Below are positions 1 to 29,264 of a stretch of DNA of 55,747 nucleotides, in pieces. The stretch's first letter is position 1, and each line of letters opens with the position of its first letter. The notes beneath the pieces are model-generated. The model did no database searches, had not been told where the DNA came from, and saw only the letters and a list, made by a program, of their open reading frames with translations. The stretch covers positions 1 to 55,747 of the forward strand of contig CACPJB010000003.1 in assembly GCA_902634135.1 (NCBI GenBank). The letters run 5' to 3'. This DNA comes from an uncultured Marinoscillum sp. (lineage in GTDB: Bacteria > Bacteroidota > Bacteroidia > Cytophagales > MED-G16). The translations under genes were made by a program, and so were the position numbers.

Positions 1-227
1 TCATCAGTAACACCATCTCCGTCCGTATCTACTTGAGAAGCGGAACATCCATTCTCATCAACACTTTCTCCTTCAGTAGTATTGGGACATTGGTCTTTGT
101 CATCGGCTACTCCATCACTATCAGAGTCAAGTTGTGACAATGCACAGCCCTCTGAGTTTACCGTTACTCCTGTTGGAGTATTAGAGCACTTATCAAGAGC
201 ATCCGCTACGCCATCCTTATCAGAATC
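1..227 (-). repeat. 33-aa (99-bp period) TSP3-like repeats DxDxDGVxDxxDxCxNTxxGxxVxxxGC
   Basis: DSDKDGVADALDKCSNTPTGVTVNSEGCALSQL / DSDSDGVADDKDQCPNTTEGESVDENGCSASQV / DTDGDGVTD... Confidence 0.85.
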
Positions 228-515
228 TATTAACTCAAATTCAGCTGTAATTGTAGTATTAGAAATTATCTTAAATGTAAGTGGATTTGCTGTTCCACTT
301 CCTGTACCTGTCCACTGCTTAAAAGAATAATTTTCTGTGGGTGTTGCAGATATCGTAACACTACTCCCCTCATCATATGAGCCAGAGGCAGGATCTACTG
401 TTCCAGCACCTGCTGGAGTAACTTTAGTTGTGAGAGTATAAGTTATTGGAGGAACTTCCTCTTCACAAGAAATCAATAAAAAAGATAATATAAATAAGTA
501 GTATAGATTTTTCAT
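1..515 (-). CDS. Surface lipoprotein with InlB B-repeat-like domain and thrombospondin type-3 (TSP3)-like Ca-binding repeats; 3' end runs off the window
   Basis: Not in the ORF track. My translation from ATG 515: MKNLYYLFILSFLLISCEEEVPPITYTLTTKVTPAGAGTVDPASGSYDEGSSVTISATPTENYSFKQWTG...DSDKDGVADALDKC...; lipobox LISC followed by acidic EEE; open to base 1. Confidence 0.85.
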   Translation of the reverse strand, partial: MKNLYYLFILSFLLISCEEEVPPITYTLTTKVTPAGAGTVDPASGSYDEGSSVTISATPTENYSFKQWTGTGSGTANPLTFKIISNTTITAEFELIDSDKDGVADALDKCSNTPTGVTVNSEGCALSQLDSDSDGVADDKDQCPNTTEGESVDENGCSASQVDTDGDGVTD

Positions 516-538
516 ATATATTTTAACATAATTACCTT

Positions 539-546
539 CAAATATA
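539..546 (-). promoter_or_regulatory. Bacteroidota sigma-70 -7 box (TANNTTTG) for the TSP3 lipoprotein
   Basis: CAAATATA on + is TATATTTG on -, 23 nt upstream of ATG 515. Confidence 0.5.
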
Positions 547-599
547 AACCCATAAAAACTAAAAAGCAGTGATGTAAACCCTATTTTTTTTATCCTTTT

Positions 600-1979
600 C
601 TATCTCTTTAATACCACTACGTCATCCAGAAAGAAACTTGGTAAAAGAGGTTCTGCTTGTGGTTTGTAGAATACTACTCTAGCTTTAGTAACACCTTCAG
701 GCACAGTAAATTCAATATTATTTTCTGTCCATACGTCAGTTTTAGGAACTGCATACTCAACAAACTTCACCTTATTACCGACCTCATCTCTAATTACAGC
801 ATTAAAGGTATTTGTTGGTTGAATTTTCCATCTGTGAAAAAACTTAAACTCATAATTTTCTCCGGGCTCTAGATCAATTAATTGAAATATTGATCCGTCA
901 TGAGGATCTATTCTTGCAAGATAGTTTCCTGTATTCGGTTCTTGTGCAGCAGACGAAATAACTGCATTTTTAAATCCAGCCCAAGGTTCAATTTCTCCAG
1001 TTTCAAATGTTCCGTTTTCAAGTAAATTTCCCTCTACCTCTGTTACAACTTCAACAACCGGGTCAGATCCGGGACCGCTAGATAAATTTGGTTTGTAATT
1101 GGCATAGTATTCACCAAGCTCAGTCAAGTTATCTTCCTCGTCATATAATACAGATGATGCTAACCTCGGATAGTTAGGCGAGTTTTTTGTTCCAGTAAAC
1201 CAAGCGAACCTCTTCACATAATTTCTTTTATAGAGCTCAGGCAATAGTGTTCTCATAGTTCCTAAGACCTCCGATATAGTATATTTATTATCTTCAGCAG
1301 ATTGAGCACCGTCATCAACTACTGACATCTCAGTAATCCAGATAGGTTTATTATATTTTTGAAAAACATTATCTACGACATCAAGAAAAAGATTTGGGTT
1401 GTTACTCCTATAAATATGAAGGCACACAAAATCTACTCTTAAATTCTCCTCTTCAGCTCTTGCCATAAATTCATCCAGCCATCCATTTTCAAAACCCGCA
1501 GGAGCAGGGCTACCTAGAGGAACACCAATCTCTTCTAATTTCGGCCATAAAGCTATTGCCTCGTCAACCGTTAAATTTGATTGAGACTCAAGGTCAGGCT
1601 CATTAAACCCTAAAACATTTTTCACCACACCAGCACTTACTAGCTGCTTAATTTTATTTACTTCAACGTCATTTACACTGCCAGACCCCCAAAACATGGG
1701 AACAAATTCAACGCTATCAGGAATTTCATCTCTAAAATCTCTATTCCATGAGTAATGCCAGAACGGTTTTAATCTACCAATTCGAGTAGACCAGGTCGTC
1801 TCCTTATAGGCCATTCCTATGCCCTTTTTTGTTTCTAAATCCTGATTAGCACCAATATCAGAAGCAGGAGGCGCATTTTTAGATCTTTCTAATCTTGTTA
1901 TATCTAACTCATCTGTACAATTAAACGTAAGGATTGATATTAGCAAGAGTAAAATAAAAGTTAAATATTTTTTTTCCAT
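600..1979 (-). CDS. GH128 beta-1,3-glucanase lipoprotein with C-terminal CBM4/9-like module
   Basis: Lipobox TFNC; WHYSW, EFVPMFWG, LGFNEPD (acid/base Glu), LHIY, PIWITE (nucleophile Glu), YVKRFAWF; C-terminal NLLENGTFE...FFLDDV CBM4/9 pattern. Confidence 0.85.
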   Translation of the reverse strand: MEKKYLTFILLLLISILTFNCTDELDITRLERSKNAPPASDIGANQDLETKKGIGMAYKETTWSTRIGRLKPFWHYSWNRDFRDEIPDSVEFVPMFWGSGSVNDVEVNKIKQLVSAGVVKNVLGFNEPDLESQSNLTVDEAIALWPKLEEIGVPLGSPAPAGFENGWLDEFMARAEEENLRVDFVCLHIYRSNNPNLFLDVVDNVFQKYNKPIWITEMSVVDDGAQSAEDNKYTISEVLGTMRTLLPELYKRNYVKRFAWFTGTKNSPNYPRLASSVLYDEEDNLTELGEYYANYKPNLSSGPGSDPVVEVVTEVEGNLLENGTFETGEIEPWAGFKNAVISSAAQEPNTGNYLARIDPHDGSIFQLIDLEPGENYEFKFFHRWKIQPTNTFNAVIRDEVGNKVKFVEYAVPKTDVWTENNIEFTVPEGVTKARVVFYKPQAEPLLPSFFLDDVVVLKR

Positions 1980-1980
1980 T

Positions 1981-3717
1981 TTAGTATCCTGGGTTTTCGA
2001 TGAGTTTTGGATTATCTGCCAGTCTATTCAAGCCTAATGCATAATAATAATTTCTTTCTGGGTGTAGTCTTACTCCGCCCAAGTCACCATCTGCAATCTC
2101 AATAGTATATGTCTCTGTGTTTGCATTGAAACGATAATGAAGCCTGTGTCTTCTTTTATTATCTAACTCTTGAACAGCAATTCTCCATCTCCTCAAATCC
2201 CAAAACACATGCTCTTCAAATGCAAGCTCACATCTTCTTTCTTGTCTAATTTTCTCTTCCGTTATTTCTCCTAAAGATAGAGATGGCATACCCGCCCTAT
2301 CTCTAATTTGATTCATCACACTTACCATGTCTCCATTCGGATCGCCAAGATAATATGCGGCCTCCACGTAGTTTAATAAAATTTCTCCAAGTCTGAATAT
2401 TATATAATCTGTACTAGATCTCGTAGCATCTGGTGTATCTGGGTTTGTTCTTTTTCTAATTAATAATCCTGTTGCCATACTTCCTGTAAGCTTAGAAAGA
2501 CCACTTCTAGGCCACCCTTCTAAATTGCCTGTCATACTTCTATGAAAGAAAACGGTACCGTTTTTAAAACTAGAACCAGGGTAAAATATTGACGCTTTCA
2601 TTCTAGGATCTCTCATTCCAAAATACCAATTTGGATCGATAGGGGTATTGTCGTCATACATATCACGGTCTACCAAACCAGAGGAACCGTCAATAAAATC
2701 AAATTGTTCCAGGGTTTCCAGGTATACTGGATAATTAGAACTCCAATTAAAACCAAAACCTGCTGGTTGAGCTAGAGCATCCCACTGGTGACTTTTACCT
2801 GCTTCGTAATCGTATTTTTCACTAAATATTACTTCGGGGTTATTAATTTCATCTATAAAAAGATTGCCAAAGTTTTCTACATGATCAGGATATTTTTCAT
2901 AAAGAGAAAATATACCGGATTGCATAATTTCTTTAGATGCATTAAGAGATTCAAGATAGTATGAGGATGCCTCAATTGAAGGAAATCCTAATATTCCATT
3001 TAGTTGTTCACTGCCAAAGTTGGCAATACTTCCTGCGTAAAGCATAGCTCTACTTTTAAGAGCTAGGGCTACCCATTTTGTTATCCTTCCATCTTCAATT
3101 GGAAAAGGAGGAAGAACTTCAGATATCTCATCCATCTCCTTGGATATAAAGTCATATATTTCTTTCTCTGAGTTCCTTTCTCTATAAATTTCATCGTAGC
3201 TTCCTTGTATCGGGATCACATCTGTTATTAAAGGAACACCACCAAACCTCTTTACCATTTCAAAGTATACATGAGCTCTGATAAAACGCGCTTCAGCAAC
3301 TCTTGACTCTATAAAATCCTGTGTCAAACTATTTGATTGGGGAAGTTTTGTTATCATTTGATTACATTCTCTTACTAGTGAGTAATCGTAATAATCTAAA
3401 ATCTTACCCTGAAGGCCACTTTCGTTGTAATCTACATCTATCACTTGCGTATAAGGAATTTGCCACGATACACCATAATTTCTTGACTCTCCCCCATAAG
3501 AACTTATCAACCCCATATTTAAATTCCCATTTCCAGATTTAATATGAAATTGTGCCCTATCATATAAATCAAATAAGAAAGCATCTGCTAGACTAGGGTT
3601 ATCAAAAACTATTTGATCAGATATAATATCATTTCGAGTAAGATCAAAAGGATCATAACATCCTGAAAGGGAAATAATAATCGAAAATATTAACAGTCTG
3701 TTTTTAAAATTTTTCAT
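1981..3717 (-). CDS. susD: RagB/SusD family outer membrane lipoprotein
   Basis: Lipobox LSGC; EARFIRAHVYFEMVKRFGGVPLI, RITKWVALALKSR, FRLGEILLNYVEA, ERRCELAFEEHVFWDLRRW, C-terminal ENPGY. Confidence 0.95.
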   Translation of the reverse strand: MKNFKNRLLIFSIIISLSGCYDPFDLTRNDIISDQIVFDNPSLADAFLFDLYDRAQFHIKSGNGNLNMGLISSYGGESRNYGVSWQIPYTQVIDVDYNESGLQGKILDYYDYSLVRECNQMITKLPQSNSLTQDFIESRVAEARFIRAHVYFEMVKRFGGVPLITDVIPIQGSYDEIYRERNSEKEIYDFISKEMDEISEVLPPFPIEDGRITKWVALALKSRAMLYAGSIANFGSEQLNGILGFPSIEASSYYLESLNASKEIMQSGIFSLYEKYPDHVENFGNLFIDEINNPEVIFSEKYDYEAGKSHQWDALAQPAGFGFNWSSNYPVYLETLEQFDFIDGSSGLVDRDMYDDNTPIDPNWYFGMRDPRMKASIFYPGSSFKNGTVFFHRSMTGNLEGWPRSGLSKLTGSMATGLLIRKRTNPDTPDATRSSTDYIIFRLGEILLNYVEAAYYLGDPNGDMVSVMNQIRDRAGMPSLSLGEITEEKIRQERRCELAFEEHVFWDLRRWRIAVQELDNKRRHRLHYRFNANTETYTIEIADGDLGGVRLHPERNYYYALGLNRLADNPKLIENPGY

Positions 3718-3719
3718 AA

Positions 3720-6700
3720 TTAAAATAATACTCTTAGTCCAATGGTATAAGATCTTGTTATAGGGTATCTTCTCGTCGCTTGTGTTCCTGGATCAAATTC
3801 TGGATCGAATGTGTTTTTATAAATTCCAAGATTCGTCCATGAGATTAGATTCTCTGACGAAAGATAGATCTGAGTTGATTTTAGTCCAATCCTCTTAAAT
3901 GTTTTTTCTGGGACATTATAAGATAGATTTATATTTTTAACTCTTAGGTATCTCACATCCCTTAGCCAGAAGTCAGAAATTTTTGCATTATTACTGTTTG
4001 AAGATAAACTTGCTGCAGGAAGTGTAGCCTCTGGGTTAATATTTACATTTGGATTGTCTGGATGTGGTTGCCATGCGTATCGATAATGGTAAGCTAATGG
4101 TATTGAGCCGTTACTAAACATATTTGCAGCAGGACCATTAATATATATGCTAAATTTAGATGCTCCTTGAAACGCCGTTGATAACTGAAAGTTTTTATAT
4201 TTAATGTTTACACCCATTCCATATGTGATTTCTGGCATATTTGATGCATATCCAATAACGTCTTGATCCCTGAAATTTATTGTGTCATTTTGATCAAGGT
4301 CTTTATACTTAATATCTCCCGGTCTTAATGTTAAGTTTCCATTTCCATCTTGAATTATTGTGTGATTATTTATCTCATCTTGATTCATAAATATACCATC
4401 AGAAAGATATCCAAATCTTCTATTTACCCATTGGCCTTCTCTCCCAAAGATTCTTATATAATCAGGGTCGGTAAATTTTTCTAAATCATTTCTCACAACA
4501 AATTTTTCTTTTCCGATAGCAAAATTTGGTGCTAGATCAATTCTAAAGTCCCCAATATTTTGCTGGAAAACAGCTGATAATTCAACTCCTCTATCATCAC
4601 TAACATTAATATTAGTTAATGGTAAATTAAACCCGCCTTCCTTAGCCACTGATTTCTGATCATTGCTAAGTATATTTTCTCTTTTTCTATAAAAATAATC
4701 TAGTTCAACCTGAAGACGTCCTTGAAGAAAGGATCCTTCAAGCCCTAAATTATACATCGTAATAACTTCCCATGATAAGAATGGGTTTACCTCTCCTAAA
4801 GTTCTAATTGTATTATTTGAGATATTTTGTCCAAATAAATAAATATTTTGTGACTGATAACCTGCTAAATAGTCAAACCCATTAATACCGTTGGCAGTGT
4901 CGTCTCCCATCTGTGAGTATGATGCTCTAAGCTTTAAACTAATATTCTCACTATTTGAAAAAAAGGATTCTTCTGAAGCAATCCACCCTAATGAGAAACT
5001 TGGGAAATACCCCCATCTGTTTTTTGGAGAAAATAACACGTTCCCATCGGCTCTAAAAGTTGATTCAAAAAGATACTTGTTTTTAAACCTATAATTAAGT
5101 CTAGCAACTGCACTTTTTCTTCCTATATCTGAACCAGAAGATCCATCATTTGTCTGTTCATTCTCCGAGCCAATAAAAAGTTCAGGTATTGAGGTGGTAA
5201 ATAAATTTTTTCTGGTGGCAGAAAATCTGCTATAGCTCCTTCTTGTTTGTTCAGCGAGTAAAAGCACCTGAAGGTCATGCGAACCAACACTTTTTTTGTA
5301 CTCAGCTGAAACTAAAGGATATAACATTGTTCTTCTAAACTGTGAGTCGGATATAGAAGATACTCCATTCCCTACACCTTCAAGTGTAAAGGTTTGATCT
5401 GACGGTGAGTATCTATATACATTATAAGGGTTTCTAAAAGACTTTTCAGACCTATCAAGCACCTGAATATTCATATTAGCTCTTAACACAAGACCTTTTA
5501 CTCCAGGAATAGTATAATTAATTCCAATTTTACTTCTAAATGTATTATCAAAGCGATCATAAGTACCAAAAATATTTCTACTAGAACGCGCTAATGGATT
5601 TCTGTTTCCAGTAGTTGAACCTGAGTACGACACAAAAGGCTTTGATGGATCAGGAACAGATACTCCTTCGGGCAGGGAAGTTGGAAAAATAGGTTGAGCT
5701 GTTGAAAGGTCAATCCAAATATCAGACAAAGCATTTTTAGAAGGTCTCTCGCGAATATCTTGACGATAAGACATATCAACACCTAGACGTAAATGTTTAT
5801 TTAAATTAATATCAATATTTGATCTTACGTTATATCTCTTATAATCAAAGTCTCTTGACCTAAAAAAACTTTCCTGGTTAACGTATCCAAATGAACTAAA
5901 ATATTTTACGTTATCTGAACCCCCTGAAACATTTAAATTATATTGTTGCATCGGAGCATTGTTGTTTATAAGAGCCCCAATCCAATCTCCTCCCTCATAA
6001 CCTTCTGCTCCATTTTCATAATTCTGTACATCTTCTTCGGTAAATGTTGCATTAGCATCTGAAAAGTCATTAAGGTTTGCTTCTCTTACCAACTCAACAT
6101 ATTGTGATGGTGTTACGTGCTCAAGAAATGCAGTTGCAGATTGTGATGTATAACTTGAGTTAAATGATATTTTTGGTGCGCCTTCTTCTCCGCGTTTTGT
6201 TGTAACAAGAATAACTCCGTTACCTGCTCTTGCTCCATATACGGCTGCTGACGCATCTTTAAGTACACTTATACTAGCTATATCATTTTGGTCAACTCTT
6301 GAAAAGTCCATTTGAACACCATCTACCAAAACAAGAGGGGCTTCACTAAAACCTCTTATTCTAATTTGAGTGTTTTCTCCACCAGGTAATCCTGAGTTTT
6401 GTCTTGTCATTACTCCTGGTACCTTTCCAGCGATTAGATTAGATGTATTTGCAACGGGAACTGTTGTCAATGCTTCTTGTTTAATGGTAGCAACTGATCC
6501 TGTAATATTTATTTTTTCTTGTGACCCGTAGCCAACCACCACAACTTCCTTAAGTGTTTCAATATCTGGCGTCAATTGAACATTAATTATTGTCTGACCA
6601 TTTATAGGTATTTCTTGTCTTTCATATCCTGAAAATGAAATTACAATTATTGTATCAGAGAAGGCTTCTAAAGAAAATTCACCATTAATATCCGTTATGG

Positions 6701-6848
6701 TACCAGTTGTTGTTCCTTTTATTATAACAGTTGCTCCTGGTAAACCCTCACCGTTTTCATCAATAACACTACCATTTACTATATGATCTTGTGAAAAAGC
6801 AGACCAATGAATAAGAACTAAAATTAAAAAATTTAATATAGTTTTCAT
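3720..6848 (-). CDS. susC: SusC/RagA TonB-dependent receptor
   Basis: EVVVVGYG, ISVLKDASAAVYGARAGNGVILVTTKRG plug signature, PGDIKYKDL, C-terminal F; ATG 6848 (MKTILN signal peptide) preferred over TTG 6866. Confidence 0.96.
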   Translation of the reverse strand: MKTILNFLILVLIHWSAFSQDHIVNGSVIDENGEGLPGATVIIKGTTTGTITDINGEFSLEAFSDTIIVISFSGYERQEIPINGQTIINVQLTPDIETLKEVVVVGYGSQEKINITGSVATIKQEALTTVPVANTSNLIAGKVPGVMTRQNSGLPGGENTQIRIRGFSEAPLVLVDGVQMDFSRVDQNDIASISVLKDASAAVYGARAGNGVILVTTKRGEEGAPKISFNSSYTSQSATAFLEHVTPSQYVELVREANLNDFSDANATFTEEDVQNYENGAEGYEGGDWIGALINNNAPMQQYNLNVSGGSDNVKYFSSFGYVNQESFFRSRDFDYKRYNVRSNIDINLNKHLRLGVDMSYRQDIRERPSKNALSDIWIDLSTAQPIFPTSLPEGVSVPDPSKPFVSYSGSTTGNRNPLARSSRNIFGTYDRFDNTFRSKIGINYTIPGVKGLVLRANMNIQVLDRSEKSFRNPYNVYRYSPSDQTFTLEGVGNGVSSISDSQFRRTMLYPLVSAEYKKSVGSHDLQVLLLAEQTRRSYSRFSATRKNLFTTSIPELFIGSENEQTNDGSSGSDIGRKSAVARLNYRFKNKYLFESTFRADGNVLFSPKNRWGYFPSFSLGWIASEESFFSNSENISLKLRASYSQMGDDTANGINGFDYLAGYQSQNIYLFGQNISNNTIRTLGEVNPFLSWEVITMYNLGLEGSFLQGRLQVELDYFYRKRENILSNDQKSVAKEGGFNLPLTNINVSDDRGVELSAVFQQNIGDFRIDLAPNFAIGKEKFVVRNDLEKFTDPDYIRIFGREGQWVNRRFGYLSDGIFMNQDEINNHTIIQDGNGNLTLRPGDIKYKDLDQNDTINFRDQDVIGYASNMPEITYGMGVNIKYKNFQLSTAFQGASKFSIYINGPAANMFSNGSIPLAYHYRYAWQPHPDNPNVNINPEATLPAASLSSNSNNAKISDFWLRDVRYLRVKNINLSYNVPEKTFKRIGLKSTQIYLSSENLISWTNLGIYKNTFDPEFDPGTQATRRYPITRSYTIGLRVLF

Positions 6849-7028
6849 TACTAAATGATTTATCAAATTATTCGATAGTATAAAGTTTTTAAAAAAACTG
6901 AATCCAAATTAAATTATTTATTAATTATATTTAGATAAATTAAAACAACTATTAAATTTAACACCATTCCATGAAAAATCAAGCAGGGTAATTGTGTATT
7001 TAATTTTATAAAATAATAATCGTATTAA

Positions 7029-16532: not shown

Positions 16533-19346
16533 ATGAGTAAAAAAATCGAAATTTTTGGTGCTAGAGAAAATAACCTCAAGAATATTGATCTTGAGTTCAA
16601 CAAAAATAATCTGGTTGTAATTACTGGAGTTTCTGGAAGTGGTAAAAGCTCATTAGCATTTAATACTATTTATTCAGAGGGACAAAGAAGATATATGGAA
16701 AGTTTTTCTGCATATGCAAGATCTTTTATTGGAAATATAGAAAGACCTGATGTTGATAAAATCAATGGCCTATCACCTGTTATTTCAATTGAACAAAAAA
16801 CAACATCAAAAAATCCAAGATCGACAGTTGGTACATTGACTGAGATATATGATTTTTTAAGATTACTATATGCTAGAGCTTCAGTTGCGTACTCTTATGA
16901 ATCGGGTAAAAAAATGATAAAACAATCTCAAGATCAGATTATCGAAAATATTAAAAAAGATTTTTTTGATAAAAAAGTAATTATTGCAGCACCAATTGTA
17001 AAAGGCAGAAAAGGTCATTATAAAGAATTATTTATTCAGATACGGAAAAAAGGGTTCGTTAATGTTAGGGTCGATGGAGAAATTTTAGAAATAAAAAAAA
17101 ATATGCAGCTTGATAGATATGTTATTCATGACATTGAAATTGTAGTGGATAAGTTATTTGTAAATGAAGATAATCTAAATAGACTATCTAATTCTATAGA
17201 TATTGCCATAAAAAGTGGAGACAAGAAATTATATGTAATAGACGAGTCTAATAATGCGAGATTTTATTCTAAAAGTCTAGTTGATCCTATCTCCGGAATA
17301 TCTTATGAAGAACCTTCACCAAATAGTTTTTCCTTTAATTCTCCATATGGTTGGTGTTCTTCATGTAAAGGCCTGGGTGTCGAAGATAAAATTTTAAAAG
17401 AAAAAATAATTGAGGATGAAAATCTTAGTATTAGTCGTGGTGGTATTGCTCCATTAGGTCAGTACAGAGATATGTGGGTATTTAAGAAAATTGATGCGAT
17501 ACTTAAAAAAAATAATTTAGATATTTCTACTCCAATAAAAAAAATTCCAGATGATATTCTAAATATAATTTTATTTGGTGAAAATATTGAAGTTGCTGTA
17601 GAATCTACAAAATACCCTGGAACATTGTGGCATACCTCATATAATGGAGTTAAGGGGTTTATAAATAAAACAATAAGGTTTAGATCTGGAAAAGCTAAAG
17701 ATTTTATGGATGATTTTATTACTAAATCTATTTGTGAAACTTGTTCAGGGAAAAGATTAAGAAAGGAGTCTTTGTATTTTAAAATTAATGAAGCTTCTAT
17801 TTCAGATCTTAACTCAATGGATATAAAAAAATTAAGAAATTGGATTTTTTCATTAGAGAAAAATTTAGATAAAAATCAGCAAATTATTGCTGAGCCTATA
17901 GTTAAGGAAATTAAGAAAAGGGTTGAATTAATGTGTAATCTAGGGTTAGAATATTTAAGTTTAGATAGACCATTAAGGACACTATCTGGGGGTGAAGCAC
18001 AAAGAATTAGGCTAGCTACTCAAATAGGTACTAAGCTAGTAGGCGTTTTATATATATTAGACGAACCTAGTATTGGTTTGCACCAGAGAGATAATCATAA
18101 ATTAATAGATTCTCTAAAAGAATTAAGAGACTTAGGGAATACTGTAATTGTAGTAGAACATGACAGAGAAATGATGGAAAATGCTGATAATATTATAGAT
18201 ATTGGACCTGGTCCAGGGTCAGATGGGGGATATGTAGTAGCTCAAGGTGACCCTTCTAATTTTTTAAATAGTAAATCATTAACGTCTAATTATTTGTCAA
18301 GGAAATTGGATATTTCAATACCGGAAATAAGAAGAAGTGGAAATGGAAAGTTTTTAAATTTAAATGGTGCAAAAGGAAATAATTTAAGAAATGTTAATCT
18401 GTCTCTTCCCCTTGGATGTTTGATTTGTGTTACTGGGGTTTCTGGAAGTGGCAAATCTTCACTAGTTCACGGAACTTTATCTTCTATTTTAAAAAAAGAA
18501 TTATATCGGTCTAAAAAGGAATGCTTACCATATGAAAAAATTGATGGATTAAAAAATATCAATAAGTTGATTGAAGTAGACCAGTCTCCAATAGGAAGGA
18601 CACCAAGGTCAAACCCTGCTACATACACCGGAGTATTTACGGATATAAGAAATCTTTTCTCGTCATTAAATGAATCAAAAATTAGAGGGTTAAAGCAAGG
18701 GGCTTTTTCATTTAATGTTAAGGGCGGGCGTTGTGAAACATGTAGAGGCGCTGGAGTCAGGTTAGTTGAAATGGACTTTTTACCAAATGTTTTTGTTAAT
18801 TGTGAATCTTGTTATGGTAAAAGATACAATAGAGATACTCTAGAAGTGCGTTATAAAGGAAAGTCTATATCAGATGTATTAGATATGACAGTTTCTGATG
18901 CGGTTGATTTTTTTAGTAAGCAGCCAAAAATTTCTAATAAACTTAGAGCATTAGATGAGGTTGGGTTAGGATATATAAAATTAGGTCAACCCTCAACAAT
19001 GCTTTCCGGAGGAGAGGCTCAGCGCGTAAAACTTGCATCTGAATTATATAAGAAAGACACAGGCAACACTCTTTTCATTCTTGATGAGCCAACTACTGGT
19101 TTACATTTCTATGATATTCAAAATTTAATGGTTGTAATAAATAGTCTTGTTGATCGTGGGAATACAGTAGTTATAATTGAACACAATATGGATGTTATTA
19201 AATGTGCTGATTATATAATTGACCTTGGTCCTGAGGGTGGTGACAAAGGTGGACAAATTATAGCACAGGGAAAGCCAGAAAAAATTATTAATAACAAGAA
19301 AAGCTATACTGGAAATTACCTTAAAAATGAATTGTTTAATACATGA
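16533..19346 (+). CDS. uvrA: Excinuclease ABC subunit A
   Basis: Two GVSGSGKS Walker A, two LSGGEAQR signatures, EGQRRY, IGRTPRSNPATY. Confidence 0.98.
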   Translation: MSKKIEIFGARENNLKNIDLEFNKNNLVVITGVSGSGKSSLAFNTIYSEGQRRYMESFSAYARSFIGNIERPDVDKINGLSPVISIEQKTTSKNPRSTVGTLTEIYDFLRLLYARASVAYSYESGKKMIKQSQDQIIENIKKDFFDKKVIIAAPIVKGRKGHYKELFIQIRKKGFVNVRVDGEILEIKKNMQLDRYVIHDIEIVVDKLFVNEDNLNRLSNSIDIAIKSGDKKLYVIDESNNARFYSKSLVDPISGISYEEPSPNSFSFNSPYGWCSSCKGLGVEDKILKEKIIEDENLSISRGGIAPLGQYRDMWVFKKIDAILKKNNLDISTPIKKIPDDILNIILFGENIEVAVESTKYPGTLWHTSYNGVKGFINKTIRFRSGKAKDFMDDFITKSICETCSGKRLRKESLYFKINEASISDLNSMDIKKLRNWIFSLEKNLDKNQQIIAEPIVKEIKKRVELMCNLGLEYLSLDRPLRTLSGGEAQRIRLATQIGTKLVGVLYILDEPSIGLHQRDNHKLIDSLKELRDLGNTVIVVEHDREMMENADNIIDIGPGPGSDGGYVVAQGDPSNFLNSKSLTSNYLSRKLDISIPEIRRSGNGKFLNLNGAKGNNLRNVNLSLPLGCLICVTGVSGSGKSSLVHGTLSSILKKELYRSKKECLPYEKIDGLKNINKLIEVDQSPIGRTPRSNPATYTGVFTDIRNLFSSLNESKIRGLKQGAFSFNVKGGRCETCRGAGVRLVEMDFLPNVFVNCESCYGKRYNRDTLEVRYKGKSISDVLDMTVSDAVDFFSKQPKISNKLRALDEVGLGYIKLGQPSTMLSGGEAQRVKLASELYKKDTGNTLFILDEPTTGLHFYDIQNLMVVINSLVDRGNTVVIIEHNMDVIKCADYIIDLGPEGGDKGGQIIAQGKPEKIINNKKSYTGNYLKNELFNT

Positions 19347-26587: not shown

Positions 26588-27469
26588 ATGAAAAAGTTAA
26601 ATAAGATTCTTGTACTTTTTGTTCTACTGACCTTGCTGCCAGTAGAGGATTCATATTCTCAATCTACTGCTGAGTCAAATGGGTATAATCCTTTATCATT
26701 AAGACAAGTACATGAATCTTATTTAATGTGGAAAAAAACATTGTGGAGAAGAGTTGATTTGAAGGAGAAACAAAATAAGCCATTTTTTGCCAGAAATAGA
26801 GAGATGTCTAAGATCATAATTGAAGCTGTAGAGAGAGGTGTTTTAATACCATATAATAGTGATTCTGTTAATGACAGTAATGTTATGTCTAGAGAGGAAT
26901 TTATTGAAAACATTCAACAAGTTGATGAAGAGATAGAAGAGGAAGAAGAATTTGGCTTTGATTTAGATGATCCTTTTGCAGGATTTGAGGAGGGGGGGGA
27001 TGATCCTTTTGCTGAGGAAGTTGAAGAGATAGAAACAGGACCAATTTTTATTCCTAAAAGAGAATTTTCAATCTTTGAAATAAAAGAAGATCTATATTTT
27101 GATAGAATTCACTCAAGGATCTATTTTGACATACAGGCAATAACAATGTATCTTCCAGGAGATAGTTTTTATAATCCTGCTGGATTTGAGAAGCCAATTG
27201 CTTCATTTAGATTTATAGACCTTTATAACCTCTTCAAGTCTATGTCAAGAGACGCAATATGGTACAATGAGAATAATATTGCTCAGCATAAGAATTTGGG
27301 AGATGCTTTTTTACTTAGACTATTTAAAGGCATAATTGTCAAAATAGCTAATGCTGATGACATTAGAGTTTCTGAGCTTTATGCTAGATCTCGAAAAGAA
27401 GGAATTATGGCCAGCTTTAAAGTAGAGCAAGATCTAATGGAGTGGGAAGCTAATCTTTGGGAATACTAG
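26588..27469 (+). CDS. gldN: Gliding motility/T9SS protein GldN (PorN)
   Basis: MWKKTLWRRVDLKEKQN, IKEDLYFD, C-terminal EANLWEY. Confidence 0.93.
   Translation: MKKLNKILVLFVLLTLLPVEDSYSQSTAESNGYNPLSLRQVHESYLMWKKTLWRRVDLKEKQNKPFFARNREMSKIIIEAVERGVLIPYNSDSVNDSNVMSREEFIENIQQVDEEIEEEEEFGFDLDDPFAGFEEGGDDPFAEEVEEIETGPIFIPKREFSIFEIKEDLYFDRIHSRIYFDIQAITMYLPGDSFYNPAGFEKPIASFRFIDLYNLFKSMSRDAIWYNENNIAQHKNLGDAFLLRLFKGIIVKIANADDIRVSELYARSRKEGIMASFKVEQDLMEWEANLWEY
26926..27034 (+). repeat. Nested in-frame direct repeats and a G8 tract in the gldN acidic loop
   Basis: TGAAGAGATAGAA at 26926-26938 and 27022-27034; GATGATCCTTTTGC at 26966-26979 and 26999-27012; GGGGGGGG at 26992-26999. Confidence 0.8.
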
Positions 27470-29264
27470 TAAAGTAATTAATTATTTTTTCTGCTTTTTC
27501 TTTTCCTATAGTTCTAAATAGTTCTTTTTTGCTAGCTTTTTTAATATTTTCAATTGAACCAAAATACTTTATCAATTTAGTTCTTGTAACTTCTCCTATT
27601 CCGAATATTTCTTCTAATTCGGATTGGATAAATGTTTTACTTCTAAGTTGTTTATGGTATGTAATTGCAAATCTGTGAGCTTCATTCCTAATATTCTGTA
27701 TAAACTTTAACTCTTGTGTATTTTTGCCTAATAATATTGGAATAGAATCATTAGGAAAATAAATTTCTTCAAGTTTTTTTGCTATTCCGATTACATTTAT
27801 TTTATTATAAATTTTTAAATCTTTCATTACTTGACATGCTGAACTAAGTTGACCCTTTCCTCCATCTATAATTATTAAGTCTGGGAGCAAATTATTCTCT
27901 TTTATTATTTTTGAATATCTTCTGAAAACAACCTCCCTCATTGATTCAAAGTCATCCGGTTTTGTTACTGATCTTATTTTATATTTCCTGTATTCTCTTT
28001 TGTTTGGATATCCATCCTTAAAAAGTACCATTGATGCTACAGTATTTTTTCCTTGAATATTGGATATATCAAAAGATTCTATGTGAAAAGGTATTTTTTT
28101 TAGATTTAATTTATTCTTTAGATCAAGAAGTATCGATAATTTTTTTGTTTTTCTTTCTTTTTTCTCATTATATAAATTTTTCTTAAAGAAAAGTATATTT
28201 TTTAAACTCATATCCAATAATTTCTTTTTATCACCGGCTTTTGGGATATATGATTTAAGATTATTAGATACTATTTTATTTAAGTTAATATTTGAAATTA
28301 TATTATTATTAACGCTATTATATTTGAATTTTAAGTCCATAATTATTTGTCTTAATTCTTTTTTTTCGAGACTTAATTTTTTCTTTATTTTTAGAGATTC
28401 TGAACCCATGATCATCCCATTATTTATTTTTAAATAATTAATAAAATATGATTTACTATCTTCAATTATTCCTATAACATCAAGTGCATTATATTTATCA
28501 TTTACAATTATAGATTTAGACTGATATGTATCTAGAAGTTTTAATTTTTCTTTAATATTTTGAGATTTTTCAAACTCCAGTAATTCAGAAAACTCCTTCA
28601 TTTTATTTATGAGATGTTCTTTTACATTTTTAAAATTTCCCTTTAAGATTTCCCTTACATATTTTATATTTTCATTATAAGCTTTTTCAGATAATAATTT
28701 TTTGTTGTTTTTAGTATATTTTGCAAATCCGAGAATTAATGTGTTTCCATTTTTAGAATGAACATTTAATCCAATATTATTTTTTGGATCATTTATTTTT
28801 TTTTGAGAAAAATTATAATTGCTAACTCTAATTGGATAGATATTATTAATAATATTTAATAGGGAATTTATTCCTTTCACATTAGTAAAAGGTCCAAAAT
28901 ATTCTGATCCATCTTTTATATATTTCCTTGTTAAAAAAACCCTAGGAAACCTTTCTTTTTTGATAGAAACCCATGGGTATGTTTTATCATCTCTTAGTAA
29001 TATATTATACTTTGGTTTATATTCTTTTATAAGATTATTTTCAAGAAGTAAAGCATCATGTTCTGATTCTGAAATTACAAAATCAATTTTTGTAATTTCT
29101 TTTATCATTTTTAAGATTTTATTATTGTGTTGTTTTTGAAAATAACTTTTTACTCTCTTATTTAACCTTTTTGATTTTCCAACATATATTATATTAGACT
29201 CCTTATTTATAAATTTGTATACACCTGGTGAACTGGGAAGTTCAACTTTTTTAATATCTATCAT
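27450..29264 (-). CDS. uvrC: Excinuclease ABC subunit C
   Basis: GIY-YIG PGVY...IIYVGK, ALLLENNLIK, FDISN, LIIIDGGKGQ, RNEAHRFAI, HhH GIG. Confidence 0.96.
   Translation of the reverse strand: MIDIKKVELPSSPGVYKFINKESNIIYVGKSKRLNKRVKSYFQKQHNNKILKMIKEITKIDFVISESEHDALLLENNLIKEYKPKYNILLRDDKTYPWVSIKKERFPRVFLTRKYIKDGSEYFGPFTNVKGINSLLNIINNIYPIRVSNYNFSQKKINDPKNNIGLNVHSKNGNTLILGFAKYTKNNKKLLSEKAYNENIKYVREILKGNFKNVKEHLINKMKEFSELLEFEKSQNIKEKLKLLDTYQSKSIIVNDKYNALDVIGIIEDSKSYFINYLKINNGMIMGSESLKIKKKLSLEKKELRQIIMDLKFKYNSVNNNIISNINLNKIVSNNLKSYIPKAGDKKKLLDMSLKNILFFKKNLYNEKKERKTKKLSILLDLKNKLNLKKIPFHIESFDISNIQGKNTVASMVLFKDGYPNKREYRKYKIRSVTKPDDFESMREVVFRRYSKIIKENNLLPDLIIIDGGKGQLSSACQVMKDLKIYNKINVIGIAKKLEEIYFPNDSIPILLGKNTQELKFIQNIRNEAHRFAITYHKQLRSKTFIQSELEEIFGIGEVTRTKLIKYFGSIENIKKASKKELFRTIGKEKAEKIINYFTSIPKD

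Follow-up and report, generated by a model that had tools for sequence, protein, structure and literature searches.

We found that the UvrC protein encoded in a 55,747-nucleotide stretch of DNA from an uncultured Marinoscillum sp. of the order Cytophagales (GenBank assembly GCA_902634135.1, contig CACPJB010000003.1, positions 1 to 55,747; this whole stretch is called the window below) has none of the four cysteines that hold the iron-sulfur (Fe-S) cluster of canonical UvrC, and that the segment around their positions is remodelled. The data are probably best explained by a working UvrC, the nuclease that makes both incisions in UvrABC nucleotide excision repair, in which the central Fe-S module has been replaced by a metal-free module, brought in as a recombining cassette. 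The gene and the parts of its product, numbered by amino acid (aa), are as follows.

27450..29264, minus strand: uvrC, 604 aa plus stop (open reading frame (ORF) and translation; TIGR00194).
29004..29228, minus strand: GIY-YIG 3'-incision nuclease domain, aa 13-87 (PF01541, E 1.8e-10).
28677..28979, minus strand: core of the putatively imported tract, aa 96-196, which includes the remodelled segment (sliding-window identity, consensus matches, trees and approximately unbiased (AU) tests).
28677..28838, minus strand: remodelled segment, aa 143-196 (alignment with 29 canonical relatives).
28719..28775, minus strand: predicted beta-hairpin, aa 164-171 and 174-182 (AlphaFold2 model m01747af56e11).
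28512..28688, minus strand: three predicted bundle helices, including the presumed UvrB-binding (UVR-like) helices, aa 193-251 (AlphaFold2).
28194..28484, minus strand: inactive RNase H1-like platform domain, aa 261-357 (PF22920, E 1.4e-07).
27663..28115, minus strand: RNase H-like 5'-incision endonuclease domain, aa 384-534 (PF08459, E 2.1e-56).
27468..27620, minus strand: (HhH)2 (helix-hairpin-helix) DNA-binding domain, aa 549-599 (PF14520 and PF12826).

The UvrC cluster motif is given as CX6-14CX3H/QX3CX3C in PMC10085695, and in our alignment of UvrCs from 38 related genomes the canonical relatives read R-x-C-N-(15)-K-V-C-L-E-Y-H-x-G-N-C-K-G-P-C. An initial annotation, made from the sequence of the window, had described the loss of all four Fe-S cysteines and a remodelling of the segment at window positions 28677-28838; these positions are indeed codons 143-196 on the minus strand, and the peptide quoted there matches the translation. 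Alignment with the 29 canonical relatives bears the description out, since the positions equal to C148, C165, C173 and C177 of the canonical congener G011 are all non-Cys in the window UvrC, the residues at the four aligned cluster positions being S, G, K/N and I/L-type. The protein of 604 aa has exactly one Cys, C477, and none across aa 1-476, in agreement with the annotated total of one. Neither the Fe-S motif after the GIY-YIG domain nor the second, third and fourth motif Cys of the three-Cys form typified by Deinococcus radiodurans is present in it. In an alignment of 85 sequences, the four Cys columns each reach 90% conservation or more. Clusters at 50% identity supplied 150 nearest representatives, of which 138 have four Cys, six have three, five have one or none and one is a fragment. 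The window UvrC is a member of the UvrC family without the defining feature of its Fe-S subclass. The remodelled segment is 11-12 residues longer than the canonical one and in frame on both sides, and a frameshift, already discounted in the annotation, or an assembly artefact was rejected because 10 genomes and 120 database proteins share this segment, in frame.

The distribution of the Cys-free form was surveyed in species-representative genomes, comprising 19 of the window's genus (G000-G018) together with other genera and families of the order. Ten of the 19 are Cys-free (G000, G002, G004, G005, G006, G008, G010, G012, G015 and G017) and eight are canonical, with all four Cys (G001, G003, G007, G009, G011, G013, G014 and G016); the uvrC of G018 is only a fragment whose state is unreadable, and G019, outside the genus, has fragments only. 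Outside the genus, all 21 readable genomes were canonical; they cover the family's two other genera and 16 further families of the order. None of the 120 database proteins nearest to the query, itself counted among them (64-100% identity), has the motif; some of these proteins are named Cytophagales or Cytophagia metagenome-assembled genomes (MAGs) and some come from Tara. Two proteins only 49% identical to the query, P0122 and P0123, have an insertion that recognisably resembles that of the query, its hairpin reading KNG-H-x-(I/L)ILGF. Among the 120 matches listed in a search with P0122, 85 were Cys-free, followed by 35 canonical; some of these Cys-free relatives are named Flavobacteriaceae MAGs or are from Tara, and the named canonical ones are mostly cultured Flavobacteriaceae. 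The 80 named genome loci nearest P0122 comprised 70 with the motif, seven Cys-free of the insert type, one of a deletion type, one Ser-substituted and one fragment, and the seven insert-type loci form three Flavobacteriaceae sublineages (L065/L078, L101/L118/L134 and L099/L106). As the initial annotation had supposed, Cys-free UvrC is a class, found across genomes, and not a one-off.

Other Cys-poor UvrCs were also encountered. For example, the Cys loop is deleted in L076, a Weeksellaceae MAG, and in P0132 (about 580 aa); the second Cys is replaced by Ser in L066; one Cys is left in P0270; and P0142, a protein of 558 aa without HhH, lost its Cys by substitution and stands alone, its 119 listed relatives being canonical without exception. 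L076/P0132, P0142, P0270 and L066 are other independent routes to a Cys-poor UvrC.

We found that the sequence identity of the Cys-free forms changes along the gene. At aa ~96-160, the Cys-free forms of the genus are nearer to Flavobacteriaceae than to the canonical members of their own family (e.g. 0.69 versus 0.50 in sliding windows), and outside this tract the reverse holds. Over the whole cassette (aa 96-250) they share 35-46% identity with their own canonical congeners and 49-58% with the Flavobacteriaceae holders of the cassette, whereas in the rest of the gene (the backbone) the corresponding values are 63-81% and 42-49%. Consensus matches of the Cys-free forms at aa 96-146 were 35/38 with Cys-free Flavobacteriaceae, 33/41 with canonical Flavobacteriaceae and 24/38 with the canonical family; at aa 197-250 they were ambiguous (17/22, 17/28 and 17/24, respectively), and at aa 251-300 native (13/21, 16/32 and 27/32). 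Informative sites of the Flavobacteriaceae type cluster at aa 98-120, with 8/10 inside and 2/66 outside, the breakpoints having been chosen from the data. The upstream flank of the imported tract is Flavobacteriaceae-like, and its downstream edge may extend to aa ~250 (window 28515). GC content carried no signal, being 0.226 in the cassette and 0.229 in the rest of the gene.

The trees agree with a change of ancestry. With all 155 columns of the cassette (aa 96-250), the holders of both orders formed one clade (support 100/98), and monophyly of the genus (p-AU 0.0002) and of the family (p-AU 0.001) were both rejected. With the trait core removed, leaving only the flanks (105 columns), genus monophyly was again rejected (p-AU 1.4e-08) and the best tree still united the two holder groups (92/73). 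In the backbone tree, by contrast, the Cytophagales family and Flavobacteriaceae were each a clade (100); uniting the two holder groups was rejected (p-AU 5e-74), and the Flavobacteriaceae holders were not one clade (p-AU 0.017). Within the genus, the uvrC backbone interleaved three holder groups with canonical species (p-AU 0.021; 0/200 bootstrap trees). Similarly, in an rpoB tree of 21 genomes the genus holders were not one clade (p-AU 5.6e-05), the holder G004 nesting with canonical G011, G003 and G014 (100/99). In all, the cassette was found in at least six backbone lineages over two orders, three in the genus and three in uncultured marine Flavobacteriaceae. A single clade of genus holders had appeared in our first tree, in which only aa 140-200 were dropped (Shimodaira-Hasegawa-like approximate likelihood ratio test, 94), because the cassette flanks were still in that alignment; it is contradicted by the backbone-only and rpoB trees.

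The uvrC of G004 is a clear mosaic at the DNA level. Compared with canonical G011, it is 0.80-0.94 identical over aa 344-597 but drops to 0.28-0.64 over aa 90-340; compared with the holder G017, the values are 0.76-0.88 over aa 16-340 and only 0.50-0.80 at the 3' end. Taken from these comparisons, a change of ancestry along uvrC is well supported, and a Flavobacteriaceae-like ultimate source is likely, the latter resting partly on the columns of the trait itself and being weaker than the mosaic. The initial annotation had assumed remodelling in place, and on this point the evidence goes against it, pointing to a cassette that was imported ready-made and spread by recombination. The module would not have been built where it now stands; it would belong to a tract of ~100-150 codons with an ancestry unlike that of the rest of the gene, an allelic cassette that may replace the Fe-S version by homologous recombination.

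As to why the cassette spread, it is possible, at a little under evens in our judgement, that the metal-free module arose once and circulates in marine Bacteroidota as a recombining cassette across species and orders, from Flavobacteriales to Cytophagales, favoured in the sunlit, iron-poor ocean. An adaptive account, in which iron is saved and an O2-labile cofactor avoided in sunlit water, fits the marine planktonic holders and the six or more backbone lineages; the only basis for explaining the trait by habitat, as the initial annotation did with iron-poor, oxic, high-UV surface water, is that the holders are marine MAGs, single-cell genomes or Tara sequences, and the Cys-poor UvrCs that arose by other routes in L076, P0142 and P0270 belong to lineages of unrecorded habitat. 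We lean somewhat away from a neutral account, in which the loss is a by-product of streamlining and low Cys usage and the cassette spread by ordinary recombination without selection, but it is a realistic possibility. Cys makes up 0.66% of residues in 43 ORFs of the window, which leaves room for such an account, both alleles coexist within one genus, and the endonuclease Nth is also Cys-less throughout the genus. The loss is nevertheless selective, as the initial annotation had stated: the window UvrA keeps five CxxC pairs (zinc module), a radical S-adenosylmethionine (radical-SAM) ORF identified by a Pfam match, a putative HemW, keeps CxxxCxxC and the zinc alcohol dehydrogenase of the window keeps its Cys clusters, and Cys ligands are kept in MutY as well. 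Moreover, that two orders and six or more backbone lineages carry the cassette hints at an advantage, although it is no proof.

The Nth proteins show a distribution of their own. Their C-x6-C-x2-C-x5-C Fe-S tail was absent in 14/14 genus loci (G000:C35:4738-5298 and the congener loci L145-L158), whichever uvrC type was present, and the six genus ORFs examined for Cys had 0-2 each. In other families of the order, the motif was found in 24/29 loci and a three-Cys tail (GREYCPARGH..CPIC) in 5/29; the three-Cys tail looks like the precursor. MutY-like proteins kept four Cys in 9/9 loci. In G015 (C5:8279-16566), a stretch of about 8 kb holds a second uvrA paralogue together with nth and a mutY-like gene; this small neighbourhood of DNA-repair genes recurs in G004, G011, G003, G017, G010, G007 and G002. 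The G000 copies of uvrA2 and nth occupy C35:1057-3738 and C35:4738-5298, respectively.

The segment might instead have arisen independently in the Cytophagales genus and in Flavobacteriaceae, with vertical descent throughout and the odd flanks reflecting faster evolution of the canonical family members. Canonical family members do sit on a long branch in the cassette region (0.45-0.69), the cassette is only 49-58% identical between the groups, and monophyly of the whole family was not rejected on flanks without the trait columns (p-AU 0.42 and 0.43 in two alignments). However, both holder groups have insertions of comparable length (11-12 residues, the tail differing by a further 1-2), the KNG-x2-(I/L)LGF hairpin and many other non-Cys positions in common, including NNIYPIR and NYN-x-S/T-x-K-x-IN. 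In addition, the rejection of genus monophyly on flanks alone, the scatter of holders on the rpoB and uvrC backbone trees, the lack of a single backbone clade of Flavobacteriaceae holders and the DNA mosaic of G004 all speak against two independent origins, which we consider unlikely.

We return to the replacement of the Fe-S module by a metal-free cassette and to what may fill the place of the cluster. The initial annotation had proposed that the replaced segment be modelled, and AlphaFold2 gave a confident beta-hairpin. In the model of the window UvrC (mean predicted local distance difference test score (pLDDT) 87.3), a helix at 129-142 and a short helix at 154-158 are followed by strands E164-171 and E174-182 (block pLDDT 78-88) and then by the bundle helices H193-207, H211-227 and H231-251, with the near-invariant E232 kept. 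The model of canonical G011 (m6b7c6994b882, mean pLDDT 90.5) has the same flanking helices, with a four-residue helix at 166-169 and loops around the Cys, and the predicted hairpin of the window UvrC occupies the place of the knuckle formed there by Cys165, Cys173 and Cys177. In canonical UvrC, two helices of the central bundle are linked by a loop whose four Cys hold the cluster; here that loop is modelled as a self-folding hairpin and a short linker without Cys. The models and the pattern of conservation suggest that the hairpin could take over the scaffolding role of the cluster and stabilise the loop between the bundle helices, in which case the protein would need neither iron nor the Fe-S assembly machinery and would not be inactivated by oxidation of a cluster.

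That the segment still binds a metal, either zinc or an Fe-S cluster with non-Cys ligands, through His, Asp or Glu is very unlikely. The best candidate ligand column is a His at aa 169, present in 12/17 holders, with another His frequently found after the NG turn; moreover, the ligand set is not rigid, as three Cys and a [3Fe-4S] cluster are enough for D. radiodurans UvrC to work (PMC10085695). However, across the 17 holders no conserved C, H, D or E column was found between aa 143 and 192, E193 being the first, so a substitute metal site is unlikely; the window UvrC has Asn at the position of the second His, a single His cannot hold a cluster, and the predicted hairpin is a closed hydrogen-bonded element.

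Several lines of evidence bear on whether the protein works. The TIGR00194 match (475.4 bits, cut-off 285.45) spans aa 7-581, and the GIY-YIG, RNase H1-like (the platform domain, named after PMC10085695), RNase H endonuclease and HhH domains were all detected by Pfam. The invariant GIY-YIG columns G14, Y16, Y27, G29, K30, R37, Y41, F42, E75, P84 and N87 are all kept, as are D399, D438, D467 and H530, invariant in the C-terminal nuclease, and every invariant column of a 96-row alignment; the initial annotation was thus right that both nuclease domains and the HhH are intact. The C-terminal part matches the solved UvrC structures PDB 2nrt, 3c65 and 8b0q, and a sequence search found no solved structure covering the central region of any UvrC. 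In the database domain lists, PF27096.1 is given for every UvrC relative, Cys-free and canonical alike.

The partners of UvrC are retained: uvrB is present in 18/19 and uvrA in 19/19 genomes of the genus, the uvrB of the window's genome (G000:C5:17556-19538) scoring over cut-off. The uvrA of the window lies about 8 kb from uvrC.

16533..19343, plus strand: uvrA (TIGR00630 match at 16542-19289 over cut-off; Pfam UvrA domains).

A second, canonical uvrC, which the initial annotation had named as a possible objection, was looked for together with cho, and neither was found in the genus; there was one uvrC match per genome, including the Cys-free G004, G015 and G017 (90-94% complete) and the window's own genome, and matches to GIY-YIG alone were confined to four larger genomes of other families. 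The ratio of nonsynonymous to synonymous substitution rates (dN/dS, Nei-Gojobori, six pairs with unsaturated dS) ranged over 0.04-0.31 for the remodelled segment, against 0.08-0.16 elsewhere in the gene; on these ratios, the segment is under purifying selection. By sequence, the window UvrC looks functional, and the 3' cut by the GIY-YIG domain, the 5' cut by the RNase H-like domain, UvrB docking and DNA binding would all proceed as in other UvrCs. Decay of the protein in a lineage abandoning excision repair, to which the small, streamlined genomes (about 1.6-1.7 Mb at 93-95% completeness), the Nth homologue without cluster Cys and the undetected Pfam UVR domain might point, is scarcely credible given the intact reading frame in all 10 genomes and 120 database proteins, the low dN/dS, the retention of all invariant catalytic residues, uvrA and uvrB, and the predicted order of the hairpin.

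A number of points weigh against a functional, metal-free UvrC module imported as a cassette. That the protein is active and metal-free, that the hairpin has a structural role and that there is a selective advantage are all inferred, from sequences and models, and AlphaFold2 models no cofactors. PF02151 (UVR) was not detected in the window UvrC at E <= 0.01; it appears in the domain lists of Flavobacteriaceae holders. With the window's genome no more than 55% complete, the case against a second uvrC depends on the congeners. Eight congeners keep all four Cys, which means that habitat alone does not decide the state and that any advantage is not universal; the low Cys usage likewise gives ground to neutrality. 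As to the mosaic, only the upstream part of the tract (aa 98-120) is clearly placed by the informative-site breakpoints, its downstream edge being ambiguous; besides the family tests on flanks already mentioned, genus monophyly was not rejected in an earlier 67-row flank set (p-AU 0.096); some of the groups tested were defined once a tree had been inspected; and the species tree is represented by one gene, rpoB. Finally, the modest identity of the cassette to the Flavobacteriaceae versions suggests that the true donor is unsampled or the transfer old.

The uvrC gene stands between the gliding/type IX secretion genes gldL-gldM-gldN on one side and a gene for penicillin-binding protein 1a on the other. 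It is convergent with gldN (26588-27469, plus strand), and the 3' ends of the two genes overlap by 20 bases (window 27450-27469). Further away, window positions 1-6866 contain a SusC/SusD pair, a glycosyl hydrolase with a family 4/9 carbohydrate-binding module (CBM4/9) and a fragment bearing repeats of the InlB B-repeat and thrombospondin types, which from these sequence features looks like a small polysaccharide-utilisation locus.

What is new here is a Cys-free UvrC variant, probably carried on a recombining cassette, within the known UvrC family. A full-text literature search found no report of a UvrC without any cluster Cys, although one may be mentioned in Silva et al. 2020 or in the supplementary alignment of PMC10085695. 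If the module did arise once and circulates as a cassette, the Fe-S cluster of UvrC would be structurally replaceable and dispensable for excision repair; and if the cassette spreads by recombination, dependence on a cofactor would be exchanged as a module inside an essential housekeeping gene, with a bearing on how marine bacteria cut their iron demand. The role of the cluster is still to be identified, DNA charge transfer or a structural role having been proposed (PMC10085695).

Escherichia coli UvrC binds an O2-sensitive [4Fe4S] cluster (Silva, Grodick and Barton 2020, J Am Chem Soc, as cited in PMC10085695 and in PMC9426483). It belongs to the same family as the window UvrC and has the same domain order, from the GIY-YIG domain through the central region, the presumed UvrB-binding helices and the RNase H-like domains to (HhH)2. 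The window UvrC differs in having none of the four cluster Cys and a loop that is 11-12 residues longer, with a predicted beta-hairpin. D. radiodurans UvrC, which lacks the first Cys and has an oxygen-stable [3Fe-4S] cluster (Seck et al. 2023, PMC10085695), is likewise a natural departure from the four-Cys rule, and its central region shares with the window UvrC a predicted architecture of beta-sheet motif, helical bundle and RNase H1 platform; however, it keeps three Cys and a cluster, whereas the window UvrC lacks all four and offers no plausible set of ligands. Similar three-Cys forms occurred among the 150 representatives (P0219, P0225, P0241, P0253 and P0264). Cho shares the GIY-YIG domain with the window UvrC, but is described as being without the C-terminal nuclease and HhH, with a Cys-rich motif kept in class II Cho (PMC10085695); identity of the window protein with Cho was ruled out, as it is full length with both nuclease domains and scores 50.9 bits with NF007833 against a cut-off of 367.

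The closest comparison is with canonical congener G011 (locus L011), which shares its genomic setting and its uvrA/uvrB partners with the Cys-free congeners. Outside the cassette, the G011 UvrC is 73% identical to the window UvrC and 81% identical to that of G004, but across aa 96-250 it is 35-46% identical to the Cys-free forms, carries C148, C165, C173 and C177 and has no insertion. Proteins so alike outside the cassette as those of G004 and G011 are ready-made matched pairs for probing the need for a cluster in incision, UvrB coupling, damage search and oxidative regulation.

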